From the NCBI GenBank assembly GCA_030522375.1, contig CP130488.1:576569-640568 (forward strand): DNA of 64,000 bases, read 5' to 3'. Under the pieces are notes generated by a model. That model did no database searches, was not told the origin of the DNA, and saw only the letters and a list, made by a program, of their open reading frames with translations. The stretch comes from Methanosuratincola petrocarbonis. GTDB lineage: Archaea; Thermoproteota; Methanomethylicia; Methanomethylicales; Methanomethylicaceae. Both the position numbers and the translations under genes were made by a program. Positions 28,793 to 62,783 of this stretch are shown here, piece after piece. Every line of letters begins with the position of its first letter. The first letter of the stretch is position 1.

Positions 28793-30688
28793 ATGGCAGC
28801 AAACATTCAGCCAGGAGAGAAAATTATAGGTATAGATTTAGGTACAACCAACTCTGCCGCAGCCATCTTCGAGGGCGGCAAGGCCACAGTGATACCGAGC
28901 GCCGAGGGGCCGACTGCTGCAGGGAAGATGTTCCCTTCGGTGGTCGCCTTCACCAAGGACGGGCAGCTGCTCGTCGGCGAGCCTGCTAAGCGGCAGGCAG
29001 TGGCGAACCCGGAGGGCACGGTATTCGAGATCAAGCGGAAGATGGGTACCGACTACAAGGTCAACATATTCGGGAAGGAGTACACGCCGCAGCAGATCTC
29101 CGCCTTCATACTGCAGAAGATCAAGAAGGACGCCGAGACCTACCTCGGCACAACGATTAAGAAGGCTGTCATAACAGTCCCGGCGCACTTCAACGACAAC
29201 CAGCGCCAGGCGACGAAGGACGCGGGCGAGATCGCCGGCTTCGAAGTTCTCAGGATCATAAACGAGCCCACGGCTGCTTGCCTGGCTTACGGTGTCGACA
29301 AGCTCGACAAGGAGCTAAAGATCCTCGTCTTCAGCTTCGGCGGCGGCACGCACGATGTCACGATTATGGACTTCGGGAAGGGCGTATTCCAGGTGCTGTC
29401 CACGAGCGGCGACACAGAGACGGGCGGGGCTGACATCGACAAGGCTCTTATGGACTATGTCCTCGAGGAGTTCAGGAGGCAGACCGGGATCGACCTGAGG
29501 GGCGACAGGATGGCGATGGCGAGGCTGAAGGAGGCTGCCGAGAGGGCGAAGATCGAGCTCTCCACGCTCCTCACGACCGACATCGACCTCCCGTTCATCT
29601 ATGCAGACGCATCCGGACCGAAGAACCTCCACGTGACCATTACAAGGGCGAAGCTAGAGGAGCTCGCGGCGCCTATAGTCCAGAAGACCGAGCGCACGAT
29701 CATGAGGGCTCTCGAGGACGCGAAGCTGACGCCCGCCCAGATCGACAAGATCATACTCATCGGCGGTACGACCAGGATGCCCCTCGTCCAGCGCTTCGTC
29801 GAGAGGATCCTCGGGAAGCCGGCGGAGCGCGGCGTGGACCCGATGGAGTGCGTCGCGATCGGCGCAGCGATACAGGGGGCGGTGCTCTCGGGCGAGGTGA
29901 AGGACATCCTGCTCCTCGACGTCACGCCGCTGTCGCTCGGGGTCGAGACCCTCGGCGGCGTCTTCACCAAGATAATAGAGAGGAACACCACCATCCCGAC
30001 GAGGCGCAGCCAGATCTTCACCACGGCTGCCGACTTCCAGACTGCTGTCACCATACACGTTCTCCAGGGTGAGCGGGCAATGGCGAAGGACAACGTCTCG
30101 CTGGGCATGTTCAACCTCGAGGGCATACCTCCGGCTCCGCGCGGCGTCCCGCAGATCGAGGTGACATTCGACATCGACGCGAACGGCATCCTGAACGTCA
30201 CTGCGAAGGACCTGGGGACCAACAAGGCTGCCTCAATCAGGATCACCGCCTCGACCAAGCTCTCCAAGGAGGAGAAGGAGAGGATGGTCAAGGAGGCTGA
30301 GCAGTTCGCCGAGCAGGACAGGAAGAAGAGGGAGGAGGCCGAGCTCAGGAACAATGCCGACAGCCTCATCTACACTGCTGAGAAGACGAAGAAGGACCTC
30401 GCCGACAAGCTGAAGCCCGACCAGGTGAGCAGGGTCGACGCCGCAGTCGCAGCGCTCAAGGAGGCGCTCGCCGGGACCGACGTGGAGAAGATAAAGGCAA
30501 AGTCCGAGGAGCTGACGAAGGTCCTCCAGGAGGTCGGGACCGCGATCTACCAGCAGGCTGCAGCCGAGTACCAGAAGGCGCAGCAGGCTTCCGGGCAACA
30601 ACAGCAGGCAGCCTCGGGCGCCCAAGGAGCGCAGCCGCAGGACGACAAGGAGAAGAAGGTCTACGACGCCGACTACAAGGTCAAGTGA
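28793..30688 (+). CDS. dnaK: Chaperone DnaK (Hsp70)
   Basis: 631 aa. [18 protein letters not shown]-type and other Hsp70 signatures. Starts 2 nt after the grpE stop. Confidence 0.95.
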
Positions 30689-35900: not shown

Positions 35901-36018
35901 TCCGCCAGGTTCCCTCGCGTTTGACTTAATATTTAGGTAATTTTACTAAAAAGGATAAGTAATCATTTAAAAAGGCTTAAATATAAAAATTAAAGAAAAA
36001 AATCCGTAGATAATAAAA

Positions 36019-36543
36019 ATGGTATCCAATAGTCTAAATTGGACAAACTGGTTAAAATTTAAAAATATTTGGGTAAGGAATGGAAGTAAATATTTCTTCC
36101 AATCTAAGGAAAATCTGCTCATTCCTGAAGATCCGGGTGTCTACCAAGTCAGGTGCATACAAAAAAACGATAAGCCGATTCAAATACAAAGGGCGAATGG
36201 TGTCGATACGGAGGGCATCCTCTACATAGGCAGCTCTAGTGATCTTATGGAAAGAATAAGGACTTTTTGGAGAGGGGTTAACGAGAATGTGCCTCCAAAT
36301 CTATTGCAAGCTTCTATTTCAAGCGCCAACATGTCCCAGATTTACAACCTTTTGAAAGTCCCTCATTCAGGTGCCAATACCTACGCGATTTTCCAGTTTG
36401 CTGGGGTTTTCCCTCAGGATTCTTTAGAAGTGCAGTGGGCTCAAACATCTACATACAAATCCGATGAAACAACTCTGTTATACGCATATATGGCAAAGTT
36501 TCTTGACAAGCCTCCTTTGAATCTTTCGATCAAGCGGTGGTGA
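36019..36543 (+). CDS. GIY-YIG nuclease-like protein
   Basis: PGVYQVRC...(20 aa)...ILYIGSSSDLMERIRTF matches GIY-x10-20-YIG plus the downstream R/E motif. 174 aa, AT-rich, with a strong AT-rich promoter-like region upstream. Confidence 0.5.
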   Translation: MVSNSLNWTNWLKFKNIWVRNGSKYFFQSKENLLIPEDPGVYQVRCIQKNDKPIQIQRANGVDTEGILYIGSSSDLMERIRTFWRGVNENVPPNLLQASISSANMSQIYNLLKVPHSGANTYAIFQFAGVFPQDSLEVQWAQTSTYKSDETTLLYAYMAKFLDKPPLNLSIKRW

Positions 36544-37546
36544 TTTTAGGGAAGAGCAAAGAGTGCCATTATTCGATCTATTGCTCCAGACATCTAGATG
36601 AACTGCATAAGGGGGGCGCAAAAAATCATGCGCGCCTAAGCGCCAAGATCGATTATCGATCTTCCCCCCATTTTCTTTGCATTGACCGTCAAATCAGCCC
36701 ACCAGAAAGCTCTCAAAACCATGAGTTTCGTAAAACGGTTTCAGTACTTCCTTCAGAACCAGGTTCTAGGTTGGATCCGCAAGGATGCTGTCCGTCCCCT
36801 GTTCAGCAACGGCGATCGCCGCCCATCCATTACCATGTAAAGTCACAGGCGCCATGGGATCTTACACTTCTGATACATGCGACGTCGTCCTTCCTTCGTA
36901 TTTGTTCAATCACCAGCCGATTGAGCCTGTGATCCTTCTTGCAAGAACCATGTCCGATACCTCTGGGCATGGGATGCAGAATGATAAATCCTTGCTGCGA
37001 GGACAGAATTCCAGCTCCACCCTGGATGCGCACAATTATGCATCTAGGATCGACTCACCAAAGGTGGCTCTGATAAAAAATGGATCTCACTGAAGTGATG
37101 ATCGAACAAGATGCAGGCATTTCAAGGGAAGCATGCTATGAGATCAGGAGACTGGACTGACTTCTTTTTGGAGCGAGGAGCTCTTCAACGGGGGACAAGT
37201 GCAAGGAGCGGCGCGTTTTCTGGCTGGGACTCGAGGTCCACTGGGGGCAAGGCCCACGGGAAGCGCGCCGGACCGGAAGGGGACGGGGGTGCCGAGGTTT
37301 GAGCTGGAGGGAGTGCGAGGGTGTCCTGGAGCTCCTGTTCCTGAGGATGCGCGGGTGCGGGTCGAAGGAAGAGTGCCGGGAGGCGGTGGAGGAGGTCCTG
37401 GCGCTCGTGAAGGAAAGGAAGCTCGAGAGGTTAAAAGAGCGGTTTGGGACGATGGGGTAGATGTTTTTAAAGCAGTGCTTAATGAATTCTATACTTGGCA
37501 AATAAGAACTAAATTTTTTATATAACAAATTTTCATACTTTGCTGC

Positions 37547-38002
37547 ATGGACACTGGTGATGAAAAACTGTTCTATTTTGCATACGGATCTAACATGGAT
37601 CCAGAACAAATGAAAGAAAGACAGGCAAAGTTTTTCTCGCGGAAAGGGGCCGTTCTAAGAGGATGGCAGCTCGTTTTTAACGTCGAATCGAAAACATGGA
37701 AATGCGGTGTTGCGAATATTGTCGAAAAAGAGGCCGCAAAGGTCGAAGGTGTGCTTTATGAGATCACAAAAAACAGTCTTGACGAATTAGATCGTTATGA
37801 AGGGTTTCCTAGAAAATATCAACGGAAATTGCTATCGGTCGAAAGTGAAGGCAAAGAATACAAAGCAGAAGTCTACATTTCAAAAGAAAATAAAGACGGG
37901 CTGAAGCCCTCAAAGAGATACTTGAAACAACTTCTGAAAGGGCAAGACGTTCTTTCCAAAGAGTACGTCGAGATGCTGAGGAAAGTGGAAACCCAGGACT
38001 AG
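37547..38002 (+). CDS. Gamma-glutamyl cyclotransferase (GGCT/AIG2-like) family protein
   Basis: FAYGSNM motif (YGS-N-hydrophobic) near the N-terminus and a catalytic Glu context (EGVLYEI). 151 aa. A TTTTATATA box lies about 30 nt upstream. Confidence 0.7.
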   Translation: MDTGDEKLFYFAYGSNMDPEQMKERQAKFFSRKGAVLRGWQLVFNVESKTWKCGVANIVEKEAAKVEGVLYEITKNSLDELDRYEGFPRKYQRKLLSVESEGKEYKAEVYISKENKDGLKPSKRYLKQLLKGQDVLSKEYVEMLRKVETQD

Positions 38003-38138
38003 ACAAAAAACCGGCAGTGTTGTTAAATCATGCTCTGGTCCTGATCCTGCGGAACCCCAGCAACTTGGAATTTTTTAATTTATAATTGATTAACTTTAAA
38101 TTAGCTACAATATATAGTAATTAAAGGATGGTGAAGAC

Positions 38139-38309
38139 ATGACAAAGTGTCCATATTGCGGCCATGATGGAGCAGACAAAGTGCTTAAATCGTGGCGATT
38201 TCGTTTCTACGATGTCAGGCGGATGGAATGTGAGAAGTGCGGTAAGAAATTTAACCACTATAAGGGCACCTCTGGAGGGAAAATTTCAGAGTTCTTTATC
38301 AAGATGTGA
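38139..38309 (+). CDS. Small Cys4 zinc-ribbon protein (56 aa)
   Basis: MTKCPYCGHDG...(24 aa)...CEKCGKKF gives two CxxC pairs. A GGTGA SD-like motif lies upstream. Below the ORF-track cutoff. Confidence 0.4.
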   Translation: MTKCPYCGHDGADKVLKSWRFRFYDVRRMECEKCGKKFNHYKGTSGGKISEFFIKM

Positions 38310-38586
38310 GGGGGGCTCAACGGAAGCTCGTGAGCCTCATGTTGATTCTGATTTTATCCCCAGCGCGCCGGAAATGGGGAAAAATCCAGTTTTCCCTATC
38401 CTGGTATTGGAGTGAGGTCTCTTACCGATGAGAGCATCAAAAGCAAGTTCCCTTTGTTCAACAAACGCAACTCCTCAATCACGTCCTCTGAAGTCTTAAT
38501 TCTTAATCGTAATTTTTTAGTATTAGAAGGCTTATAGAAATGCTATCACTCACTGTTAGAAGACGACTGTTTCGCGGTGTCTTTAT

Positions 38587-41286
38587 ATGAAAAATGTGTG
38601 GGAAGTTTGCGATTTTAGTGACGATATTAAGTTCGGGAGGTTTGATCCGAGCAGGTTTGCTGTTGAGCTTCATGCTGTTCTTGATGGAACGGCTGATCCT
38701 GTATATATAGATTCTAAACTTTTCCTTTCGAATACCTATCCGACATCGAACATGGCTTTCATATTGAAAGAAGCTTTGAAAAGGCTAAGTTCTAAGGGCA
38801 GTCAGCCAGTTTTCATTTTGGATACGGAGTTCGGAGGAGGAAAAACTCATACACTTCTCTTATTGTATCATGTATTTAGCAATAGAAGCATAGGCACAGA
38901 GTTCATTAGGGATTTGGGTATTGACAAGGAAATTGATGTTCTGGAAGTTCCAGAGGTAAGATTGGTGGCTATAGACTGTAGAAGCGTGAAGAGAAATACT
39001 CTTTGGGGCGAGTTAGCTGATGTTTTGGGGCATTATAAAGATTTTGAGGCTGAGGATTCTGCAAGGCAGCCTGTGCAGGATATCAGTAAATTTAAGTCTT
39101 TGCTTAAGGAGCCCACTCTGATTTTGATTGATGAGTTGCCAGATTATTTGCTTAGGGCGGCGGCTCGTGAGGTCGGAAAGGTAACACTCGCGGATCTAAC
39201 TTTGTCTTTCATAATTCACTTGATTAGCGCGGTTGCAACGAGTAAGAATTCCATGCTAATTATAACTTTGACCGGGAAGCAAAGCCTGTATGAGAGGTTT
39301 GTGAAGAGGTTTAAGGGGGAGTATCAGAGGATTCTGGACGGATTTTTGATTGAGGAGCTACATGACATAACTATTGAAGCGTCTTCTAGACAGACGAAGT
39401 TCATTGTTCCAGTAGAGAAGGACGAAGTTTCAAAGGTTATCCGAAAGCGTCTAGTGAAGAGCATAAAGGATGTGGATGAAGTCAGAAAAATAGTACGTGC
39501 ATATTGCGATTATTATCAGAATAAGGGAATATTGATAAGTCCTGGTTATGAAGAAAGGCTTGAAAATGCTTATCCGTTTCATCCGTTCCTCATTGACGTT
39601 CTTTATGAAAGAGTCTCAACCATCGAGGAGTTTAACAAGACCAGGGGCACACTTCGGTTATTGGCGATGATTTTACACAGGATTTATAGGGATAAAGTTG
39701 AATGTAAATTGGTTTCTGCCGGCGACATTCCCCTTCATGACCCTGAGATAAAGGATGAGCTTACTTCCAAGCTGGGGAAGGGTGATATGAGGCCCGTTAT
39801 CGAGGCCGACTGCATAGGCAAGGCGAAGGTTATTGACGGAAAGAGGAAAATTAAATTGGCTGAAAATATCGCTCGAACCATCTACTTATACTCGCTTATA
39901 GGGGCTGTGAAAATTTCGGGAATCAGGACGGGGGATGTGAAGCTTGCTGTTTGTCAGCCTGGAATTGACCCTGCTATTGTTGACGACATACTTAGAGAGA
40001 TGGACGAGGAATTTTGGTATTTGAAGCATGAAGCAGGCGAGTATTATTTTGATAAGGAGCCAAACATAAACAAGATAATTCACGATTACAATGGCGAGGT
40101 GAGGCCCGAAGAGGCTAGGGGAATTATCAAGAGCACTTTGGAGTCCATGCTTCCGAACGGTTCAGGTGTTAAATGCATAGTTTGGGATAAAGACAAGGTT
40201 ACCGACGAGCCTGACAGTCTTAAAATCTTTGCTCTTGATTACATGGATGTTGTCCGCTCTGATGAATTAGGCGTTCTCGAAAGCATTCTTGAAAGCAGAT
40301 CTGAGGGCGGGATTAGAAGTTATAGGAATACTGTAGTTATGCTCCTGCCTTATAAAGAGGGCGTGAATGCGTTAATGGAAAGTGCGGTATTGATCCGCGC
40401 TATTGAAAAGGCGAAAATGGACGAACGCATCAAGCTTGACAGGGATAGATTAAAGAAAATTAACGAGAAGCTTGAAGCCAGTAAGGGCCATATGGTTACG
40501 GACTGTCAAAACGTTTACTCAAAGGTGGTTTATCCTAGGATCGGCGATGGGAAACTGCAGATAGACGATTTGGGGTATGAAGAGAAAAAGAGCTTAACAG
40601 ATATGGTTTTGTCCCATCTTAGGCGTAGGGGAAAACTTGTTGACAACTTATCGGCATCAGCGATAGAGGATCTCTTGAAGGGGGATGGAGCTGGAAAAGA
40701 CAAAGTTCAGATTAAGGATATTTACACGCTTTATCGGACAGATAGACGGAAACCTTTCATACTTTGCGGCGCCGTTGTTCTTGACGCTGTTAGGAACGGT
40801 GTTAGGGAGGGCCTGTTCGGATATGCGAGGGAGCTTGTTGAGAAAGACGGTAAATACGTGGCGAAGCCTAGAGAAGAAGTATTCAGCGTGGACTGGGAAG
40901 GATGGATTATAAAACCAGATCTCGTTTACGTTGAAGAGAAAAAGGAGCGGGAAAAAGAAAAAGAAGAGGAAAGGAAACCTTGGCCTCCGCCAGAGCCCCT
41001 TTATAATTATCGTTTTGAATGTAAAAGTTTGAATGAAGCCTTGGAGCACCTGAATAAGCTTAAAGTTTTGTCTGTGGGTCGGGCCTTGGATATGCGCATT
41101 TCAATCAGTCTTATAAACGAAAGCGAAGACAAGGTCAGCATTGAAAGTAAATTGAAGAAGCTCGGGGAGCTTGAGAGTCTGCTTAATGTACTTAGGTCTA
41201 AGGGCTATTCTGGAAACGGCGAAATCACAGTAAGCTCTAAAGAGGATCTAAGCGAAGATTTGAAAAGGTATGGTTTGAGGGGTTAG
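38587..41286 (+). CDS. DUF499-type P-loop ATPase (BrxC/PglY-like, COG1483-like)
   Basis: 899 aa. Walker A TEFGGGKTHTLLLLYH and Walker B LILIDELPDY. Long alpha-helical C-terminal region. First gene of a co-directional cassette with the MTase and helicase. Confidence 0.8.
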   Translation: MKNVWEVCDFSDDIKFGRFDPSRFAVELHAVLDGTADPVYIDSKLFLSNTYPTSNMAFILKEALKRLSSKGSQPVFILDTEFGGGKTHTLLLLYHVFSNRSIGTEFIRDLGIDKEIDVLEVPEVRLVAIDCRSVKRNTLWGELADVLGHYKDFEAEDSARQPVQDISKFKSLLKEPTLILIDELPDYLLRAAAREVGKVTLADLTLSFIIHLISAVATSKNSMLIITLTGKQSLYERFVKRFKGEYQRILDGFLIEELHDITIEASSRQTKFIVPVEKDEVSKVIRKRLVKSIKDVDEVRKIVRAYCDYYQNKGILISPGYEERLENAYPFHPFLIDVLYERVSTIEEFNKTRGTLRLLAMILHRIYRDKVECKLVSAGDIPLHDPEIKDELTSKLGKGDMRPVIEADCIGKAKVIDGKRKIKLAENIARTIYLYSLIGAVKISGIRTGDVKLAVCQPGIDPAIVDDILREMDEEFWYLKHEAGEYYFDKEPNINKIIHDYNGEVRPEEARGIIKSTLESMLPNGSGVKCIVWDKDKVTDEPDSLKIFALDYMDVVRSDELGVLESILESRSEGGIRSYRNTVVMLLPYKEGVNALMESAVLIRAIEKAKMDERIKLDRDRLKKINEKLEASKGHMVTDCQNVYSKVVYPRIGDGKLQIDDLGYEEKKSLTDMVLSHLRRRGKLVDNLSASAIEDLLKGDGAGKDKVQIKDIYTLYRTDRRKPFILCGAVVLDAVRNGVREGLFGYARELVEKDGKYVAKPREEVFSVDWEGWIIKPDLVYVEEKKEREKEKEEERKPWPPPEPLYNYRFECKSLNEALEHLNKLKVLSVGRALDMRISISLINESEDKVSIESKLKKLGELESLLNVLRSKGYSGNGEITVSSKEDLSEDLKRYGLRG

Positions 41287-41290
41287 CAGT

Positions 41291-41644
41291 TTGAGGTCTG
41301 TGAAATACCGCCTTGAAGAAAGCGGGAGTGGAAAAACCGCGTGTCTGCAGGCGGTAATAGAGGATAGGTTTGGACGTAAAAAAGTCAGTCTTTCTAGGCT
41401 TAGAGGGTGGCGAAAAGAAATAGCGGAGGAGCATTTAAAGCTTGAAAGCGGAAAATGGGACGATGATGCCGCAAAAACTCTTGTGAGTTTAGAAGCCTTA
41501 AAATGCGCAAGAAGCCTGGATGAAGCCTTAAAGTTTTTGCAGGCTGTAAATAGCTTAAGCCAGCTTGATCTTCATTTCTGGGCAACTAAATTCTTGAACG
41601 ATGATAAAAAACCCAGAAGGGCTTGGAGGATGCTTTATGGATAA
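41291..41644 (+). CDS. Small hypothetical protein between the ATPase and methyltransferase
   Basis: 117 aa. Starts 5 nt after the ATPase stop and its stop overlaps the MTase start, so it is translationally coupled. No recognisable family. Confidence 0.45.
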   Translation: MRSVKYRLEESGSGKTACLQAVIEDRFGRKKVSLSRLRGWRKEIAEEHLKLESGKWDDDAAKTLVSLEALKCARSLDEALKFLQAVNSLSQLDLHFWATKFLNDDKKPRRAWRMLYG

Positions 41645-44231
41645 AACATTGATGGACAACAAGAGCGTCGAACACCTAAAACTGTTTGCGGATGTTAGCG
41701 AGGAGGCTAGGAAGGAAAAACTTGGCAGGCCGCCTATAAGTGAAATGATTTATTGGTGGACGAGAAAGCCGCTTATTGTTGGAAGGACTGTAACACTTCT
41801 TTCGTTGCTTCCTGAAAACACCAATCTGGCTGATGTTAAGCCTTTGCTGGGGCTCGGTAGGGAAAAAAGAGCTTTCAATTATGCGCCAAAGCTTGAGTCT
41901 ATAAAGAAGAATGCGGGCAAGCCACTAGACTCGTTAACCGTGTTTGATCCTTTTGCTGGAGCTGGCAACCTTCTATTTGAGGCGGCCCGTTTGGGGCCTA
42001 ACTGCACAGCTATGGACTATAATCCTGTTGCACACATTATATTGAAGGCTACGTTGGAATACCCGGCTGTTTATGGCGAAAGGCTTGCAGAGGACGTTGA
42101 GCGATATGGCAAATTGGTAATAGAGCGGGCGAAGAAAGAGGTCGGCAAGTTCTACTATAGAAAGAACGGTCGCCAAACCTTGCATTATTTGTGGTGTTGG
42201 TGTATAAAATGCCCTTATTGCGGTCAAAGAGTGCCCCTAACGAATCAAATGTGGCTTGATAAAAAAAGGAAAACAGGCTATAGGATTAAGCCTACGAAAG
42301 ACAACGACTTTGAGATAGAAGTTGGAATGGTAAGTGATAAAGAAGGCTCGAAGTACACCCAGAAAGACGGGGAAGCCACCTGCATAAAATGCAAAAACGC
42401 AATAAGTTATCAGCACATGACCAAAGACATTGCTGAGAGAAGAGACAAACAAATGATAGCAGTCGTAGTCAAGGCACAGAAAGGAAAAGACTATGAACCG
42501 TTCACGATGGAGGATATAGAATTATTCAATAAAGCAACGGCAGAGCTGAAGGACCAATGGGCAAATCTAATAAGCCAAGACCTAATCCCGCAAGAGGAAC
42601 TCAAAGAATCAGAATTATTCCGTGTAACTAATTATGGCTTGAAAAAGTGGTTTGAGTTTTTCAACGAGAGACAATTGCTTTTGATGTCCACGCTTTTGCG
42701 CATCATCCGCGATGTCTGCTCGGAAATAGTGGACAAAGAATACAGAAAGGCTATAGCCACTTACTTGGGGCTGATGATGTGCAAGCATGTTGATCACAAT
42801 TGTATTGGTGTGAGATGGGACCCAACAAAACAGATAACTTGTGATTCCCTATCTATGAGAAGTCCCCGTATTATCTACAATTTCGCTGAAACCAACCCGT
42901 TTGAGAAGACTAGCGGTTCATTTCACAGTGTATTACGGAATGTTGTTGATGCGGTAAGTTTTGCGGCGTTGAATAAGACGCCTGCTAAGGTTTTGCGCGG
43001 TTCTGCAGTAAATATGGCTGTATCAAACAAATTTGACTTAGTTTTAACTGACCCGCCATATATGGAGGATGTCGCTTATGCGGAGTTGAGCGAATTTTTC
43101 TATGTGTGGCTCACTAGAGTTCTCAGAGACTATTATCCTGAGTTGCCATCAACAGTTCCAAGCGATGAAGATCTTGTTTTAAGCAAGGGTAGGTTCGGCG
43201 GAAACGAAAAACTTGCTTTAGAGTTTTATAAGAAAGGCATGACTTTAGCCTTCCAAAACATCTACAAGTCCCTTAAAGATGACGGGCTTTTGGTGGTCTT
43301 CTTTGCCCATTCAAGTACCGAGGCCTGGGATCTTCTCTTAGAGGTTTTAAGGGGATCCAGGTTTAGGGTGGTTTCCAGCTATGCCGTGCACACGGAAAGC
43401 ACAGAAAATCCTTTGGCAAGAGGCAAGACTTCCTTCATGAGTTCCATAGTGCTTTCATGCAGGAAGATACTTGAGGATAAAGAGGCTTATTTTGAAAGCC
43501 TCATGCCCAGAGTTGAGGAAGAGATAAAAGAGTTAATTGAAGGTTTAAGCGACGAGGATCTGCTCAGCCTTCCCATAACCGACCTCCTTATAATGGCCTA
43601 CGGTAAAGTGCTTGAAGAATTAACACAATACTCCCAAATCAAAAGCTACAGGGCTGATTTCAAGGCTAAATTTGAAGATTTGATAGGCGAAGCCAGAGAC
43701 TTCATCTTCAGAGAAGTCGTAAGAAAGCTAACTGGAAGATCGCTTAACATTTTAGGACCCGAAGCCTCATTCGCACTTATAACAAAAATCTTTTACAGAA
43801 GCTCAATCCCTAGTGATGAAGCCCTAAAAGTTGTTAGAGCGTATGGGCTGACCGTCGACGCCCTAGTGAAAAAGGGCTACGCCAAAAAAATCAGCGGCGG
43901 AATAGAAATAACGCCCTTCACAGAAGTCCCCTTAGACATCAGCCCCGAAGAAGTGGAAAGAAACAACCTCTACCAACAACTCCTCTACCTATTAAAAACA
44001 GCCAACGAGAAAGGGGCGCCGGCCATCAAACAGCTGCTGTCATCCTACGGCAACTTCGGGCTTCAAGAACTCCAATACATCATAAACCTACTGACAAAAC
44101 ATTATAGACTGCTCATTAACAAAGGCGAAGAACTTAGAGACAGCGAAAAAATCGAACTCCAAGTTTTAGATTCTATATCAGATGTTATAGGCCAGCCAAT
44201 GCAAAGAAGGACCCTCGACAGCTTCACTTAA
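41637..44231 (+). CDS. DUF1156-type N6-adenine/N4-cytosine DNA methyltransferase with an internal zinc ribbon (COG1743-like, PglX-like role)
   Basis: SAM motif I VFDPFAGAGNL and catalytic motif IV LVLTDPPYMEDVAY (DPPY). A CxxC...CxxC zinc ribbon (CIKCPYCGQ...CIKCKNA) lies between them. Long C-terminal domain. The ORF track starts at 41601; the in-frame ATG at 41637 overlaps the upstream stop. Confidence 0.85.
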   Translation: MDKTLMDNKSVEHLKLFADVSEEARKEKLGRPPISEMIYWWTRKPLIVGRTVTLLSLLPENTNLADVKPLLGLGREKRAFNYAPKLESIKKNAGKPLDSLTVFDPFAGAGNLLFEAARLGPNCTAMDYNPVAHIILKATLEYPAVYGERLAEDVERYGKLVIERAKKEVGKFYYRKNGRQTLHYLWCWCIKCPYCGQRVPLTNQMWLDKKRKTGYRIKPTKDNDFEIEVGMVSDKEGSKYTQKDGEATCIKCKNAISYQHMTKDIAERRDKQMIAVVVKAQKGKDYEPFTMEDIELFNKATAELKDQWANLISQDLIPQEELKESELFRVTNYGLKKWFEFFNERQLLLMSTLLRIIRDVCSEIVDKEYRKAIATYLGLMMCKHVDHNCIGVRWDPTKQITCDSLSMRSPRIIYNFAETNPFEKTSGSFHSVLRNVVDAVSFAALNKTPAKVLRGSAVNMAVSNKFDLVLTDPPYMEDVAYAELSEFFYVWLTRVLRDYYPELPSTVPSDEDLVLSKGRFGGNEKLALEFYKKGMTLAFQNIYKSLKDDGLLVVFFAHSSTEAWDLLLEVLRGSRFRVVSSYAVHTESTENPLARGKTSFMSSIVLSCRKILEDKEAYFESLMPRVEEEIKELIEGLSDEDLLSLPITDLLIMAYGKVLEELTQYSQIKSYRADFKAKFEDLIGEARDFIFREVVRKLTGRSLNILGPEASFALITKIFYRSSIPSDEALKVVRAYGLTVDALVKKGYAKKISGGIEITPFTEVPLDISPEEVERNNLYQQLLYLLKTANEKGAPAIKQLLSSYGNFGLQELQYIINLLTKHYRLLINKGEELRDSEKIELQVLDSISDVIGQPMQRRTLDSFT

Positions 44232-44243
44232 AGGGAAAGCGCT

Positions 44244-47200
44244 ATGATTCAGATAGGCTCAAGGGTTAAAATAAGAGGAAAAAACGAAACTGGAGCAGTT
44301 CTAGAGCTTAGGGGAAACTTCGCTCGAGTTTTAACGCTCACAGCCGACACGTGGCATCCAATCGAAGAATTAGAAGAAGACCTCTCTTTAATAGACCGCA
44401 TAATTACTGTAAATCTGGACGATGGATTAGACTTCATCCTGTCAATGGACGCCTACAGGCTGCTCTCAGAATACAAATTCAACCCCTACGTTCTAGCCTC
44501 ATCAACAAAAATCAGGATCTTTCCCCACCAGATAGACGAAGTCACAAGAATCCTTGACATGCCAAGGATGATGATCGCTGACGAGGTCGGTCTAGGCAAA
44601 ACAATAACCGCTGCGTTGGTCGCAAATGAACTCAAAGCCAGAGGGTTAGCAAACAAGCTACTATTTGTTGTGCCAAAGGCTCTGCTCTACAAGTGGCGCG
44701 ATGAATTAAACAACAGATTTGAAATGACTGCAGAAATCCTAGACTCCACCTATGTAAAAATACACGGGCCCCCTCTAGGCAAAAGGGAGTTCTGCTACAT
44801 CTCATCTATGGACTATCTAAAACAGAGCCATGTTATAAAAATGATTGAAGACGCAGAATTCGACATAACCGTAATCGACGAAGCCCACAAACTAGCGCTA
44901 AATACTGACAGACTAAAACTGGGCGAATGCCTAGCTCCAAGAACTAATCACATGCTTTTCCTGACGGCGACGCCCCACAACGGCGATAATGAGGACTATC
45001 TTAATAGAATCAAACTTTTAGACCCCTACATAACGGATGTGCAATCCGCCTCTCACATTCTAATTAGGAACCTAAAAGAGGATGTAGTAGACCTTGAAGG
45101 GAAAGAAGTCTTCCCTCCTAGGCAAAGCAAAACCGTATCTATCCCCATAAGCGAGGAAGAAACAAAACTTCACAGAATGGTGGATGAATATATCTCAAGA
45201 CGTATAGACGAAGCCCGGGATCGACAGGAATACAACGCAATGAGGTTTTTAGGGGGCATAATTCGCAAAAGAGCGTCGTCATCCCTAAAAGCCCTCAAAC
45301 TGACATTGGAAAGAAGACTAACAAGGCTAGGACAGGCTGTGAACGCAGAACAGGCCATAAAAAGAATGAAGGAGGCTGAAGAAGAGTTCGACGAGGAACA
45401 ATATGAGGAAAGCGAACAAGAGGTCGTAGGGATTTCGGGCTACTCCATAGAAGAAGATCGCAAAGAACTTGCAGAGTTGTTAGCTGAACTTGAAAAGATC
45501 CATGAAGATTCTAAAATAAAACATTTGATGAGCTTCATAGATACGATAAAGAAAGGCGATAAAACGACAAAAATAGTGATTTTTAGCGAATATAGAGACA
45601 CCGTAGACTACCTTTTCGAAAACCTGGCCAACAAGTATAGACTCGCGAAAATATACGGAGTCATGAACGTCGATGAGCGACATAATGCTTTGGCCAATTT
45701 TAGGGATCCAAATGGTGCGGAAATAATGGTCTGTACTGACGCGGCTGGTGAGGGCATAGACATGCAATTCGCCAACATAATGATAAACTACGACCTTCCA
45801 TGGAACCCAAACAGGCTCGAGCAAAGAATGGGGAGGATACATAGAATAGGTCAGACAAGACCTGTATACTATTACAACTTTATATTGTCGGGCACTATTG
45901 ACGGATACATTTTAAGTAAACTGTTAGAAAAAATCGAAGCAATAAAAGAAGCCATAGGCGACAAAGTCTACGATGTCGTTGGAAAACTTCTTTCAGAGGA
46001 AGGCATTTCAAGCCTATACGAAGAATTTTTGAAAGTACCTAAGGAGCTTTGGGAGGCCAAAGTCAAGAGGGTTGACGATATAATTGAGGAACGCAGGCGA
46101 ATATTGAATGAAATCAACGCCCTCCTCTCTGGACACAGGCTTGATAGAAGCAAACTTGAAGAAATCAAAAAAGTAAGACTCGAAGCCGTCGAAAAAGGTG
46201 AAGTTAAACGCTTCATAGAGGTCTACCTGGGAACTAAAGGAGGGAAAATAGAGCCCGTAAGAGAAGAAGACGAAGTTTACAGGCTAATGCTTCCGGCAAA
46301 GCTTGCACACAATCTTAACTACGGAACATTGGTCGGCAGCTTTTCAAATACAGTTGCAGAACAGAAAAACTATCCATACCTAGCTCTAGGAAACAAATGC
46401 ATAATGAGTATGATTTTGGACGCTATGAAGCCATCCGTCTCAATCTTTAAGCACGAAACATTAAGCGGAATACTTTACATTTATCGCGTCATATTGAAAG
46501 ATGGAAAGGGACAAGAAAGAAACGGAAAAATAATAGTTCTTCATTACTCCGAGGGAAAAATAAGGGAAATAGATCCAAGGAGCATATGGGATCTCGAACC
46601 TGTCGTCGGGGAAGAGCCTGAAATAGACACTAAAAACATTATTGAAGGCAAAAATTCAGCGGATCAGGCTCTACTCAAAATCGTATCCGACCTCAAAAAT
46701 GAAACCTCAGCAAAAATCGAGGAAATAAAGAACAAAACAAGAGACATAATCATAGCGTACTACTCAAGAAGAGTTGAGGAAAGTCGCAGAAAGATCGAGG
46801 ATTACCAGAATAGACTACAAGAGAGCCCCCACTACTCCAAGCTAATAAATAAAGAAGAGAGCACAATAAACTCGCTAAAACTAGAACTTGACTCAAATCT
46901 AACAGAAATATCCTCAGTATTTAATATTTACACCCTCTACGAGCTTATAGGCACGGCCATAATCATAGGAAAGCCAGGCGCAGACATCAAGAAGAAAGTG
47001 GAAAACGCAGGAGTTCAGGCAGTCATAAAATACGAAATGGAAAGGGCCAAAACAGAAGAGGAAAGAAACAGAATCAGAGATGTCTCTGACCAATATAAGG
47101 GATACGATGTAGAATCTTTTGACAGAGTGATTGAAGTCAAATCCTTTAGCACAACAGGATCAGTAGAAATGACAAGCAATGAATGGGAAACGGCTAACAG

Positions 47201-47366
47201 AATTAAAGAAGCATACTGGCTTTACACCGTGGAAAACGCCTTAGACAATCCTATAGTTTACCCAATACAAAACCCAACAGTAAAATTCAAGGATCTAGTA
47301 GAAAAAATTCCCATAATAGACTATAGATATAGAATTGACAAATGGAAAACCGCATCAACAAAATAG
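44244..47366 (+). CDS. SNF2-family helicase with a C-terminal DUF3883-like PD-(D/E)xK nuclease-like domain
   Basis: Motif I DEVGLGKTITA, motif II DEAHKL, motif III LFLTATPHNG, motif V VCTDAAGEGIDMQ, motif VI RMGRIHRIGQTR. C-terminal GYDVESFDRVIEVKSF matches the DUF3883-like restriction-endonuclease fold. 1040 aa. Confidence 0.85.
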   Translation: MIQIGSRVKIRGKNETGAVLELRGNFARVLTLTADTWHPIEELEEDLSLIDRIITVNLDDGLDFILSMDAYRLLSEYKFNPYVLASSTKIRIFPHQIDEVTRILDMPRMMIADEVGLGKTITAALVANELKARGLANKLLFVVPKALLYKWRDELNNRFEMTAEILDSTYVKIHGPPLGKREFCYISSMDYLKQSHVIKMIEDAEFDITVIDEAHKLALNTDRLKLGECLAPRTNHMLFLTATPHNGDNEDYLNRIKLLDPYITDVQSASHILIRNLKEDVVDLEGKEVFPPRQSKTVSIPISEEETKLHRMVDEYISRRIDEARDRQEYNAMRFLGGIIRKRASSSLKALKLTLERRLTRLGQAVNAEQAIKRMKEAEEEFDEEQYEESEQEVVGISGYSIEEDRKELAELLAELEKIHEDSKIKHLMSFIDTIKKGDKTTKIVIFSEYRDTVDYLFENLANKYRLAKIYGVMNVDERHNALANFRDPNGAEIMVCTDAAGEGIDMQFANIMINYDLPWNPNRLEQRMGRIHRIGQTRPVYYYNFILSGTIDGYILSKLLEKIEAIKEAIGDKVYDVVGKLLSEEGISSLYEEFLKVPKELWEAKVKRVDDIIEERRRILNEINALLSGHRLDRSKLEEIKKVRLEAVEKGEVKRFIEVYLGTKGGKIEPVREEDEVYRLMLPAKLAHNLNYGTLVGSFSNTVAEQKNYPYLALGNKCIMSMILDAMKPSVSIFKHETLSGILYIYRVILKDGKGQERNGKIIVLHYSEGKIREIDPRSIWDLEPVVGEEPEIDTKNIIEGKNSADQALLKIVSDLKNETSAKIEEIKNKTRDIIIAYYSRRVEESRRKIEDYQNRLQESPHYSKLINKEESTINSLKLELDSNLTEISSVFNIYTLYELIGTAIIIGKPGADIKKKVENAGVQAVIKYEMERAKTEEERNRIRDVSDQYKGYDVESFDRVIEVKSFSTTGSVEMTSNEWETANRIKEAYWLYTVENALDNPIVYPIQNPTVKFKDLVEKIPIIDYRYRIDKWKTASTK

Positions 47367-47819
47367 CATCCGCAGAAATTAATAGCCACTAATAGTCGAT
47401 GATTTTAAAAATTCAATACCATCTCGACCTCCAGCTTCTCAGAAACTTTCCTTCACGAAACTTTTTGAAGCCAGGTCATAGGTGTAGCACATGCTCCGAC
47501 CCTCGCCGTAGCTGGTTATATTGAACGACGCCCCCCTGAGGAGGTTTGGTTCCGGACTAGCAAGGCGCAGTGTAAGCGCCCAGAGGCACTATGTGTAAAT
47601 TCGGATTCATGGGTGCACTTGCACTAAACATAGATTGTGATCCAGATCCTGCATTTTTTGCTGCAGATGGCCTTGAAAGTGATGGGATCTCGACTTCTTG
47701 ATTGGATCGAGAATATAAAGGAGATAGTCTCGGTCGTCACTAACATGGGTTGGCAGAAGGCGTGCCCACAGAATAGTAAATATATACCCAACAGCAATTA
47801 TTTGCAGAGGGTCGGTATA

Positions 47820-48503
47820 ATGCTGGGCTCAGGGCACATAGGCTTCTGGCTCGGAGAGCGGGCCGAGAAGGAGGCGATATCTGCCTGCGAGAAGCACATG
47901 GAGAAGATATTCTCGATAGTCAGGAAGTTCCGCGAGTACGTCTACGCGTTCCTGGACAGCGACTGCGCGAAAGCCAAGGAGATGTCGTCATCGATAATAG
48001 CCCTAGAGCGTGAGGCCGACCAGATCAAGGAGAACATAATGAAAGAGCTGATGGAATCCTCGCTCCACCCGATGGACCAGGATGAGATCATACGCCTGCT
48101 CATGACCGCCGATGACATCGCTGCCCACGTGAAGTCCGCGACGAGGAAGCTCCTGTACGCCCACCCGAAAGACATCCCCGAAGATGTGAAGTCTGGCATC
48201 CGCGGTCTGGTAGACCTGCTCCTGGAGGAGGCTTTGAGCCTCATGGAGACCATTGAAGCGCTCGTCAAGAGGACCGGGGAAGTGGTCAGCAAAGCCGAGA
48301 AGACTGAGCGCCTCGAGGAGAAGATCGACGATGTGCGCGTCGAGCTGATCGCGAAGATACTCGACTGGGGGGATACAGCCCCGCACATAAGGGACTGGCT
48401 GATGATAAAAGAGGTCGTCGAGAACATCGAGGCGTCGTCAGACCGGATGGAGGACACCACCGACCTGATCAGGGCAATAGCCGTGCTCAGGGGCAAGAGA
48501 TAA
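47820..48503 (+). CDS. DUF47 / PhoU-like phosphate transport regulator-related protein
   Basis: Helical-bundle protein with DUF47-type repeats. Start chosen at the ATG at 47820, about 30 nt downstream of an AAATATATA box. The ORF-track N-terminal 61 aa is low-GC probable promoter. Confidence 0.7.
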   Translation: MLGSGHIGFWLGERAEKEAISACEKHMEKIFSIVRKFREYVYAFLDSDCAKAKEMSSSIIALEREADQIKENIMKELMESSLHPMDQDEIIRLLMTADDIAAHVKSATRKLLYAHPKDIPEDVKSGIRGLVDLLLEEALSLMETIEALVKRTGEVVSKAEKTERLEEKIDDVRVELIAKILDWGDTAPHIRDWLMIKEVVENIEASSDRMEDTTDLIRAIAVLRGKR

Positions 48504-58056: not shown

Positions 58057-58614
58057 TCAAAGGTCCACGACGGCATCGAACAGGCCGATCAGCTCCCCAA
58101 GCAGGAGCCGCTCCCTCTCGCTTATCCCTGAACCCTTGTCGTCGAAGAAATCCCCCCAGTAGGCAGTCCCCACGAAGGTCTCCGCCAGGGCTATGGCTTC
58201 CCTGAGCAGCTCTGCCCTTCCGCACTGGAGGTAGATCGTCAAGTCATTCACAAAAAGCACCGGGGTGGGGGATGCGATGTACTGGGCTAAGCACTGCTCG
58301 ATCGCGCAGGCGTTCAGCTTGGCCAGCCTCACGACTTCTTCTGCGGTAGTCCCCTCAAGGCGGGGAGCAAATACATGCGTTGGTTCGAGGTGCCGCACCT
58401 TTTCTGGAGCGGGGACGACAAGCCGCCCGCCGACCTTCCTTCCCCCCACGGAAATCTCTCCCGGGGCCATGTCGATGACTGTTATTGAGCCCGCCCCTTC
58501 TGAATCGGTGGCCTCAGCCAGGAGGCGGCTGAGCAGGCTGGTCTTCCCCCTCCCGACGTCCCCGCGTATCAGCGCCTTCTTGCCCTTGATCGCCGAATAG
58601 CTAATCCCCTTCAA
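58057..58614 (-). CDS. Small P-loop NTPase, uncharacterised
   Basis: Walker A GDVGRGKTSLLSRLL and Walker B-like VLFVNDLT. 185 aa. Overlaps the ThiW-like gene by 14 nt. Confidence 0.55.
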   Translation of the reverse strand: MKGISYSAIKGKKALIRGDVGRGKTSLLSRLLAEATDSEGAGSITVIDMAPGEISVGGRKVGGRLVVPAPEKVRHLEPTHVFAPRLEGTTAEEVVRLAKLNACAIEQCLAQYIASPTPVLFVNDLTIYLQCGRAELLREAIALAETFVGTAYWGDFFDDKGSGISERERLLLGELIGLFDAVVDL

Positions 58615-59182
58615 TTACGCGCCTCCTCTTCAGAGCCAGGACTACGAGATAGCCCATGACTGCCCCGGGGACGCTGCTCATGAGGAAAAAGATCGTGAAC
58701 AGCTGCCACTGGGCAGTTAGCCCGAGGAAGGGCTGCAATTGCGCTGCACCGATGGCTGGTGCGACAAAGAATGCGCTGATCAGTGCCCCGAGGGTCGTCC
58801 CCAAGGGTTCCGTAAGGCCGGCAGCTTCTTTCCGCACCAAATACTTGTAGGCTATGCCGACCACCAATGCGCCAGGAATCCCCCCTGGCAGGGCGAAAAA
58901 AGTCCCGGTCCCAATCCCTATCCTGATCATGCCGATCAGCCCTGCCACGACGCCCGCGTTCAGCGGTCCGAGCAAAATCCCCGCGACCACATTTATCATA
59001 TGCTGGAAGGGGAAGACTTTTGTCGGCCCCACGGGGAATGCGCCAGGAAAAACCGATAACGAAACGCCTAATGCGACAAGTATCGATGAAAGCACTAACC
59101 GGTACGTGGGCGTTTTCAAATGTATTATTTTTCTATTACTATAATTAGACCCATTCTCAATATTTTGCCTTTTTGACACCAA
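58601..59182 (-). CDS. thiW: ECF transporter S-component, ThiW-like (thiamine precursor)
   Basis: 5-6 TM protein with FPFQHMINVVAGILLGP, resembling the ThiW motif. Preceded by a TPP riboswitch. The true start is probably the TTG near 59119 (KTPTYRLVLSS...); the AT-rich 59120-59182 stretch is likely leader. Confidence 0.65.
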   Translation of the reverse strand: MVSKRQNIENGSNYSNRKIIHLKTPTYRLVLSSILVALGVSLSVFPGAFPVGPTKVFPFQHMINVVAGILLGPLNAGVVAGLIGMIRIGIGTGTFFALPGGIPGALVVGIAYKYLVRKEAAGLTEPLGTTLGALISAFFVAPAIGAAQLQPFLGLTAQWQLFTIFFLMSSVPGAVMGYLVVLALKRRRVIEGD

Positions 59183-59188
59183 ACTACA

Positions 59189-59276
59189 GATCCCTCCGCT
59201 GGCATTGCCCAGATCAGGTTCAAAGGGTCGGCGACGGTTCCAGTCACCCTCTCAGCCCCTTTCCAGGAGCTCCCCT
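59189..59276 (-). ncRNA. TPP (thiamine pyrophosphate, THI-element) riboswitch
   Basis: Minus-strand sequence GGGGCUGAGAGGGUGACUGGAACCGUCGCCGACCCUUUGAACCUGAUCUGGGCAAUGCCAGCGGAGGGAUC. It has the conserved CUGAGA and ACCUGAUCUGG-AAUGCCAGCG pyrophosphate-sensor elements. Sits directly 5' of the ThiW-like gene. Confidence 0.8.
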
Positions 59277-60158
59277 TTGCAATCCAAATTTCCCGTATGT
59301 TTATAAGTGTTCCTATTACCTGATTATAGGAATTGCGGGCAAATTTTATTTTAGTAGTAAATATTTTTTAAATATGAAAATTCATTTTTTTAATTTAGGA
59401 CCATTAACGAAATTATTTTAAGGTTTAAGAACACTTCACTTTAAAGGACATTTTTAAACTAGTTAGCGTCATGGCTTAATAAATCAACAAATATCAAAAT
59501 TTTATTCAAAAATAAAAAATCATCGATATTTAAAAAGATAATTCAAAGAAATTAATTAAAATTGGAAAATTGTGGTTCACCATCAGATTGCGCCTCCTGT
59601 GCGGAATCCAATATTTCCTGAATCCCAGAGAATTCAGGCTGCTGGGGCTTGGGAGATCGGCAGGGGTGAGCGAGAATCTGAACCGCTCTGAAGGCACTCC
59701 CCGGGGCCTGAGGCGCTCGAAAGAAAGCAGGACGGTGGTTTATCACCTGCGGCCGCCGTTTCTTATCATTTCCCAATCTCACCTAGAATGGGAAATGGTG
59801 CAAAGATGGGATCTGCAGAAATTTTTCCTTTTATTTTCCTATTATGGAAATATTGGGAAATAAAGAGTAGCCCCGTTGGTTTTTGAGGCTCTAGAGGCGG
59901 CCTGCAGGCAGCCCAAAAATTTTTATGAAAAATGAATTGCTAATTTTATGGAAAAATTGTATTAGTGGTAAAACTATTTTTTAGTTTGACTTTTTATTCC
60001 CCAAGACACTTCGTCGGCATCCTTGTAAATTAGTTTACTATGAACGCTAGAATCTAGATCCAAGTGAAAGAACTGTTGGTGTCAGATACCTTGAGATATT
60101 CGCTAAAAAACCATAAGTTATTATATGACAAAAACCACCATTAACACAGGCGAGTGCA

Positions 60159-61901: not shown

Positions 61902-62783
61902 TCAGGCGAGCGGCTCCGGGCACTTGTCTGCCGCGTAGGGTAGCTTCTCAGCCTTGATCAGGAACTGTTGCCTGCTCGCCCTCACCTTCTCCAGGACGAG
62001 GCATTTGCCCCTCTCCGTGAGCGCGAAAACTGGGACTGCCGAGCCCGCCTGAATCAGTGCCTTCCCTGCAGCCGCCTCCCTGATCCACCTGGATGCGCAA
62101 GCCGACACCAAGTCCGCAACCTCGACCATCCTGCAGGCTTCCTCCTTCCCGATCCCGGTCAGGTGGACTCCGAATATGAGCGCATCAGGATGCCTTGCCC
62201 TTATCCTCTCGCCCTCTGCGGGGTCTGTTATTGTCACAGCGACATCCGAGTATCCCATCTTGTACGCGAGATCAGTCCCCTCTGCCTGATCGATCCTCGC
62301 GGTCTCGCGATCCAGGACGGTTCCGCCGAGGGCCTCTATCCTTTCGATGAGCTTAGGGATAGGGGAAGTCGAGACCAGCCCGGACATCCTCCCGCCAATA
62401 CCCTGGACAAGGTCCGGGTTTTGCGTTATGAGCGTCCCTGCGCCCTCGCAGACGATGACGGCAGCCCCCAACGCCTTCGTCCGGAGCCCATGGCTTATCA
62501 TTTCGGATGCGCCGAAGGTCACAAAGTCCTTTGACGACTCGAGCAAGCGGTTCTCAGTGCACATCCCGTACGCGCTGATCCTTCCCTCTATGTTCTTGCG
62601 GACCTTCTCTGGGGTGATGGTGTCCACCGGGGTGGAGAACTTCTTCGCCAGCGGGCATTCCCTGATCATGGGAGGGCCGACCTCGATAACCAGCCCATCC
62701 CTGACAACAACGCGGGACCTGCCTATCGCCTCAATCACATGCTCGTCTCGATCGGGCATAATCGCATCGAAAAGTTGATACAC
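61902..62783 (-). CDS. DUF2099 family protein (methanogenesis-marker-8-like)
   Basis: 293 aa. Archaea-specific conserved protein pattern (VIVCEGAGTLIT..., GGRMSGL). Recalled from memory; unverified. Confidence 0.45.
   Translation of the reverse strand: MYQLFDAIMPDRDEHVIEAIGRSRVVVRDGLVIEVGPPMIRECPLAKKFSTPVDTITPEKVRKNIEGRISAYGMCTENRLLESSKDFVTFGASEMISHGLRTKALGAAVIVCEGAGTLITQNPDLVQGIGGRMSGLVSTSPIPKLIERIEALGGTVLDRETARIDQAEGTDLAYKMGYSDVAVTITDPAEGERIRARHPDALIFGVHLTGIGKEEACRMVEVADLVSACASRWIREAAAGKALIQAGSAVPVFALTERGKCLVLEKVRASRQQFLIKAEKLPYAADKCPEPLA

Follow-up and report, generated by a model that had tools for sequence, protein, structure and literature searches.

A TPP riboswitch directly upstream of thiW in the archaeon Methanosuratincola petrocarbonis and its probable action by direct translation attenuation

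The minus strand of the 64-kb stretch of Methanosuratincola petrocarbonis DNA analysed here (64,000 nucleotides, referred to as the window) carries a thiamine pyrophosphate (TPP) aptamer-like element immediately in front of a thiamine-related transporter gene, which raises the question of whether this is a genuine riboswitch and how it might control a gene that appears to begin at its very edge. Positions 59189-59276 had been described as a TPP riboswitch in an earlier note, in which a comparison with the Rfam TPP model was proposed. In a cmscan with Rfam 15 at gathering thresholds, RF00059 (TPP riboswitch) was matched at 59286..59173 on the minus strand with 68.8 bits and an E-value of 2e-11, above the gathering score (GA) of 54.3 bits and over the whole model (positions 1-105 of 105). 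At these curated thresholds, this was the sole Rfam match across the window. The full match (59173..59286) includes the P1 of the model and its flanks, and 59189-59276 is the aptamer core, beginning with the 5′ strand of P2 and running a little past AGGGA.

The core was delimited to 59191..59276 (minus strand) from the sequence, the Rfam alignment and covariation in 25 archaeal orthologues. P2 is formed by 59276-59273 with 59227-59224, P3 by 59270-59266 with 59259-59255, P3a by 59248-59243 with 59235-59230, P4 by 59218-59216 with 59195-59193 and P5 by 59212-59209 with 59202-59199, while the CUGAGA junction is located at 59255-59250, a CG bulge at 59198-59197, and ACCCUUUGAACCUGAUCUGGGCAAUGCCAGCGGAGGGA ends at 59191, all on the minus strand. 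Standard pairs were present in 90.5% of the P2-P5 helix cells of the alignment of the 25 orthologues, compared with 80.1% in shuffled controls, none of 500 shuffles reaching the observed value, and with 34-58% only when the helices were slid. Compensatory changes on both sides were found in 10 pairs of the aptamer helices. Moreover, the ligand-contacting core (UGAGA junction, ACCUGAU...GG/CC...GCG arm and AGGGA) is complete in the window and invariant in the same orthologues, and the aptamer lies on the same strand as the thiamine-related gene that directly follows it. The element is a genuine TPP riboswitch and an ordinary member of the RF00059 family; binding of TPP and a resulting change in expression are its predicted functions. 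Of the P1-P5 architecture that had been expected, P2, P3, P3a and P4/P5 form and are backed by covariation, and the P1 of the Rfam model is poorly supported.

The gene directly 3′ of the aptamer is thiW (58601..59182, minus strand), encoding an ECF-type S component of 193 aa that is a predicted thiazole-precursor transporter. The ORF matched the equivalog model TIGR02359 with 129 bits (cut-off 84.35; profile positions 3-158 of 160) and PF09512 with 123.5 bits (cut-off 30.3; E 1e-35), and its homologues carry the name ThiW. Together with the Rfam match, these results bear out the placement of the riboswitch in an archaeal genome directly 5′ of a ThiW gene, and thereby the transporter assignment. 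The nearest homologues belong to Candidatus Methanosuratincola, Verstraetearchaeota and Methanomethylicaceae, the nearest thiW genomic loci are all from Methanosuratincola or Methanomethylicia (Thermoproteota), and over 6.5 kb the window region shares 98% identity and its gene order with a metagenome-assembled genome (MAG) of M. petrocarbonis (GCA_039630845.1). The host is therefore a methanogen of the Thermoproteota (TACK), and not a member of the Thermoplasmata, towards which the presence of the riboswitch had been thought to hint. A gene for methanogenesis marker 8 is located at 61902-62783. The cultured strain of the host species is M. petrocarbonis LWZ-6, and the type strain of the species was cultured at 55°C in medium with vitamin B1 (PMC12244365).

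Regarding the region between the aptamer and the conserved part of ThiW, the earlier note had taken the AT-rich stretch at 59120-59188 for an expression platform and the annotated TTG at 59182 for a start placed too far upstream. Comparison of seven Methanosuratincola genomes argued against both proposals. The UUG at 59180..59182 (minus strand), 9 nt past AGGGA, is invariant in 7/7 genomes, whereas the candidates further downstream vary: TTG 59119 (codon 22) is TTA, TCA, TTT or CCC in other Methanosuratincola, and GTG 59095 (codon 30) is GTC or GTT. In several of these genomes an in-frame start is absent from codon 2 (codon 9 in locus L003) up to the first transmembrane helix. Frame 0 is stop-free over the first 66 nt in all seven genomes at 21-32% GC, while the other two frames contain 1-5 stops each, and zero indels were found in the AT-rich segment, in which variable sites are distributed as 9/9/12 over the three codon positions. 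Beyond the genus, an in-frame start at +4 to +9 after AGGGA was found in 26/28 archaeal thiW aptamer loci, with ATG in most clades, and the N-terminal tails that follow it in other archaeal clades are unrelated in sequence and 15-45 residues long. The UUG at 59182 is thus probably the start of thiW and 59120-59188 probably not an expression platform; the segment 59120..59179 (minus strand) most likely encodes codons 2-21, a Lys/Asn-rich, fast-evolving and variable N-terminal tail of ThiW, with M(V)SKRQNIENGSNY as the predicted peptide. A second gene caller likewise gave a ThiW of 193 aa from the conserved TTG, in disagreement with the NCBI pipeline (PGAP), which in the 98%-identical genome calls a ThiW of 164 aa from the GTG equivalent to 59095 (L081, 2520-3014). 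If the start at 59182 holds, the annotated thiW start would have to be corrected in Methanosuratincola genomes.

The reading of 59120-59188 as a separate AT-rich platform, with translation from TTG 59119 or GTG 59095 and control by alternative pairing within the platform, draws on several of the same data. The first 27 residues of the 193-aa ORF lie outside the ThiW profile matches, which start at residue 28, a block AAAATAATACAT is kept at the nucleotide level, and the 164-aa PGAP call in the M. petrocarbonis MAG starts at such a GTG. In addition, nonsynonymous changes outnumber synonymous ones in the tail (125 versus 32 codon differences, against 20 versus 100 in the first transmembrane helix). 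The tail is thus without evident purifying selection, and its coding status rests on the openness of the frame and the conservation of the start; it behaves like a spacer peptide, as would be imposed if the start codon has to adjoin the aptamer. What makes a separate platform unlikely is that neither alternative start is conserved, several genomes having none in frame, that the frame is open and indel-free where the others are interrupted, and that all other archaeal clades put an ATG directly past the aptamer in front of unrelated tails. Furthermore, no conserved terminator or anti-RBS hairpin was predicted. An upstream ORF starting at ATG 59154 (9 codons, ending 5 nt before TTG 59119) was also considered and rejected, being out of frame within the conserved ThiW frame and having its ATG absent in orthologues such as that of L001.

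With thiW starting at 59182, the GGAGG at 59193..59197 (minus strand), composed of the 3′ strand of P4 and the bulge G, would be the only element resembling a Shine-Dalgarno sequence and is proposed to serve as such from within the pyrophosphate-sensing bulge and arm of the aptamer. Its distance to UUG is 10 nt in the window and 5-8 nt in the clades with ATG, and GCG[GA]AGGGA with a start codon 4-9 nt further on recurs in 26/28 archaeal loci. GGAGG or GGTGA motifs of this type also precede some other genes of the window, for example at 28793 (aaaggaggagaattgatATG), 50995 and 25849. Barrick and Breaker (2007; PMC2258182) defined direct translation attenuation by a start codon at most 15 nt from the aptamer end, found it to be commonest for the riboswitch classes TPP, preQ1 and SAM-I, mostly in Actinobacteria and Cyanobacteria, and noted that the purine-rich conserved 3′ segment of the TPP aptamer stands in for the RBS. 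Given TTG 59182 as the start, the sequence of the window falls within this class, UUG being located 9 nt past AGGGA.

Direct translation attenuation is the best reading of the locus because the archaeal starts lie 4-9 nt past AGGGA, as opposed to the 14 bacterial thiW loci, in which the first in-frame ATG is found at +62 to +241 nt. We consider it reasonably probable that the element is a functional OFF switch of this kind, operating without a separate platform and forming nearly the whole 5′-UTR of the operon of thiW and the P-loop gene that follows it. At low TPP, the P4/P5 arm would be loose and the small ribosomal subunit could use GGAGG and UUG; with TPP bound, the P2/P3 and P4/P5 arms would be clamped together and the ribosome-binding region and start would be hidden, so that less ThiW transporter and less of the downstream P-loop protein would be made. 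The points that weigh against this reading are that UUG is a weak start codon at a spacing of 10 nt rather than the 5-8 nt of the ATG clades, together with the relaxed tail and the PGAP start described above.

We infer the switching mechanism from anatomy and precedent, since folding energies alone show no switching. In ligand-free thermodynamic folding P4/P5 was already formed, and the unpaired probability of GGAGG was about 0.42 at both 37 and 55°C. The unpaired probabilities of the Shine-Dalgarno region and the start codon barely shifted with the assumed transcription start site (TSS) or the temperature, and the z-score of the minimum free energy for the whole region was -0.71. Thermodynamic folding was consequently discarded as evidence for a switch, being uninformative without a model of the ligand. 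A literature search for experiments on the mechanism of archaeal TPP riboswitches found none.

Control at the level of transcription or RNA stability, in which TPP would cause premature termination at the U-rich stretch past the aptamer, or decay of the transcript, was considered as an alternative to direct translation attenuation. Oligo-U is a termination signal for the archaeal RNA polymerase, and the 3′ flank of the aptamer is U-rich in the clade (window, GUUUGGUGU; locus L002, AUUUGUUUUC); additionally, blocked initiation in a compact archaeal mRNA would probably destabilise the transcript too. Runs of at least 5 U are, however, absent in the window, and the U-rich flank is missing in Methanomethylicus and Bathyarchaeia despite the same aptamer-to-start layout; strict conservation applies to where the start codon lies and not to the U-tract. 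We regard this alternative as improbable and retain direct translation attenuation as the preferred reading.

Upstream of the aptamer, a TATA-like box, CTTATAAA, is located at 59300..59307 (minus strand) within an invariant block and represents a putative core promoter. The sequence CTTATAAAC (59307-59299) is invariant in 7/7 genomes, while the surrounding AT-rich spacer is variable, and the box has its 5′ edge 32 nt before the first G of P2. In a promoter scan for the box closest to YTTAWAWA, with positions counted from this G, the 5′ edge of the box was found at -31 to -35 (mode -33) in 21/26 archaeal thiW riboswitch loci, and bacterial thiW loci carry -10 boxes of the GGTATAAT type at the corresponding upstream position. 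As an archaeal TATA box is usually centred near -26/-27, the position of the box would place the TSS at about 59276-59278, right where P2 begins, and the 5′ strand of the Rfam P1 would then go untranscribed. A calibration of the TATA-to-TSS distance from leaderless genes of the window yielded too few clear cases. A second invariant block was found at 59311..59329 (minus strand) in the alignment of the seven genomes, consisting of CTATAA (59329-59324) followed by GGTAATAGG; it precedes the putative TATA box by 23 nt, is kept in all seven Methanosuratincola genomes and in several of them scores as a box at -56. This block may serve as an alternative TATA box or promoter, as a BRE, or as the site of a regulator, and the CTATAA/GGTAATAGG box could give rise to a longer, P1-containing leader in Methanosuratincola.

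The P1 of the Rfam model includes non-canonical pairs in the window. Among the orthologues, junction-proximal P1 pairing had a mean of 3.2 bp versus 2.7 bp in shuffles, with 0-1 bp in several Bathyarchaeia, and RNAduplex and register scans for P1 gave nothing above shuffles, these scans being of low power, as the bacterial controls were weak too. The window sequence also allows a 10-bp helix of 59287-59278 with 59188-59179, an extended P1 that would hide the UUG. It was rejected: it consists mostly of G-U pairs, it is not kept in the loci L001-L006, and the 98%-identical genome has G in place of U59282 without compensation. A clear P1 of 6-7 bp is present in the TPP riboswitches 5′ of a CytX-like permease gene in two uncultured archaeal MAGs (L061 and L073), in which the TATA-like box lies at -38, 5 nt further upstream than in the thiW-type elements. 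The poor P1 pairing, the lack of conservation of the long P1 and the spacing in L061 and L073 are consistent with a TSS at the foot of P2. It is possible, if rather doubtful, that TPP riboswitches of the archaeal thiW type are minimal sensors devoid of P1, with a promoter about 33 nt upstream of P2, nothing but the aptamer as 5′-UTR and the P4 strand of the aptamer as the RBS. The stereotyped layout of TATA box, aptamer and start provides a testable model of a riboswitch working with archaeal transcription and translation machinery, and the cultured strain LWZ-6 makes 5′-end mapping and thiamine shifts practicable. That the element resembles a TPP aptamer by chance or is in decay, and plays no present regulatory role, as might be argued from a weak or absent P1 and a function predicted from sequence, is very improbable and strongly disfavoured in view of the E-value of 2e-11 in 64 kb, the invariant core and covarying helices over Methanomethylicia and Bathyarchaeia, and the constant position of the aptamer on thiamine-salvage genes.

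In order to place the element among its relatives, 80 thiW loci were gathered from species-representative genomes and every one was scanned with Rfam. A TPP aptamer was found directly 5′ of thiW in 27/56 archaeal loci, namely in all Methanosuratincola and Methanomethylicus-type loci, in several MAGs labelled 'Nitrososphaerota' and in many Bathyarchaeia, and most thiW loci of Atribacterota also carry one; the scan gave no TPP match at the Nitrososphaeria-type and Methanocellales thiW loci among the 80. McCown et al. (2017; PMC5473149) counted 79 riboswitches in Euryarchaeota, 6 in Crenarchaeota, 1 in Korarchaeota and 1 in Thaumarchaeota, and a literature search yielded no paper on riboswitches of Methanomethylicia or Bathyarchaeia, nor one on ThiR. 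The frequency of the thiW aptamer in archaeal loci thus shows the TPP switch to be common in lineages that are barely documented for it. An aptamer on a thiamine-salvage transporter and the regulatory layout are both already known; the usual view holds archaeal cases to be mostly those of Thermoplasmata, and TPP riboswitches are common in Thermoproteota as well (Methanomethylicia and Bathyarchaeia).

The closest known counterparts differ from the switch of the window in defined respects. With the RF00059 members of E. coli thiM and thiC it shares the CUGAGA junction, the pyrophosphate-sensor arm ACCUGAUCUGG...CCAGCG, the covarying P2/P3 and P4/P5 and the thiamine-related gene 3′ of the aptamer. 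In E. coli thiM, anti-SD pairing takes place in an expression platform of its own, downstream of P1, whereas in the window the start codon lies 9 nt from the core, with a P1 that is weak or may go untranscribed. The direct-attenuation TPP class of Barrick and Breaker resembles it in the start at most 15 nt from the aptamer end and in GGAGGGA being placed as the RBS; it differs in that the arrangement is near-universal (26/28) in archaeal Thermoproteota thiW loci and combined with a TATA-type promoter at a fixed distance. Bacterial thiW switches (Atribacterota/Caldatribacterium, L032-L060) belong to the same aptamer family and serve the same transporter family, but have their ATG 62-241 nt away, with room for a platform, a -10-type box of the form GGTATAAT, and ThiM rather than the P-loop gene 3′ of thiW. 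The direct-attenuation layout for TPP riboswitches is said to have been predicted earlier, by Rodionov and coworkers in 2002, who also reportedly described THI elements in Thermoplasma and Euryarchaeota. The latter are likewise archaeal TPP riboswitches 5′ of a thiamine-related transporter gene, in contrast to which the present host, Methanosuratincola, belongs to the Thermoproteota. In SAM-II, SAM-III/SMK box and preQ1-II riboswitches the Shine-Dalgarno sequence lies inside the aptamer, and the ligand buries the RBS without a separate platform; the logic proposed here is the same, the likeness being functional only, as folds and ligands are unrelated.

At two bathyarchaeial loci a second TPP aptamer was observed about 2 kb 3′ of the pair of thiW and P-loop gene (L036, 6137-6246; L057, 6138-6248). 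Its TATA spacing is the same, an ATG lies about 19 nt past AGGGA with GUGAU before it, and the regulated gene extends beyond the edge of the locus.

Immediately 3′ of thiW, a P-loop gene of the RecA-like/ASCE type (58057..58614, minus strand; 185 aa) overlaps the thiW 3′ end by 14 nt and is presumably co-transcribed with it, which would bring it under the same riboswitch. From its neighbourhood and its AlphaFold (AF2) model, it is a candidate thiazole kinase. Searches of Pfam and NCBIfam with the protein gave no match. The model has a pLDDT of 93.8, and Foldseek returned generic RecA-like P-loop NTPases only, including thymidine kinases of the TK1 type, at TM scores of 0.4-0.5. An assignment to the ThiM family itself (ribokinase-like HK, PF02110) was rejected, as family matches are absent and the model has a RecA-like P-loop fold.

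Homologues of this protein, named 'hypothetical' in their sources, adjoin thiW in 54/80 loci, usually immediately 3′, and ThiM (PF02110) is found near thiW in 16/80 loci, all without the P-loop gene; no locus has both and 10 have neither, an exclusivity that is confounded by phylogeny, since every ThiM locus is from a bacterium and most loci with the P-loop gene are from archaea. The operon of L061 (240-3997) consists of a TPP riboswitch and genes for a CytX-like permease, a ThiD-ThiN fusion, ThiW and the P-loop protein, and L073 is organised likewise; without the P-loop gene, these salvage sets would be short of a thiazole kinase alone. On the exclusivity with ThiM and the gap in the L061 operon, the P-loop protein is a candidate non-orthologous thiazole kinase, its role being a functional analogy to ThiM drawn from the complementarity of gene neighbourhoods. 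That the riboswitch operon pairs ThiW with an unrecognised P-loop kinase that, in most Thermoproteota and also in some Deltaproteobacteria, takes the place of the hydroxyethylthiazole kinase ThiM appears to us plausible, at somewhat short of an even chance; alternatively, the protein could be the energising ATPase partner of ThiW. A literature search found no paper on a P-loop thiazole kinase family. If the kinase role is true, this gene would supply a step that is missing from thiamine salvage in archaea, and it may outweigh the riboswitch itself in importance.

Several further features of the window were recorded. Two tandem genes for XerA-like tyrosine recombinases (PF00589; 56877-58225, minus strand) lie directly 3′ of the operon of thiW and the P-loop gene, and the pair is also present in the M. 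petrocarbonis MAG. On the 5′ side of the riboswitch, the intergenic region 59290-60158 is unusually long (about 870 nt), AT-rich at least over 59290-59560, and contains short ORFs only and no Rfam match. Finally, an island of low GC content at about 36000-48000 (42-46%, versus 54-62% elsewhere in the window) holds very large ORFs of 900, 877 and 1041 aa and is possibly an integrated element or else a defence island.
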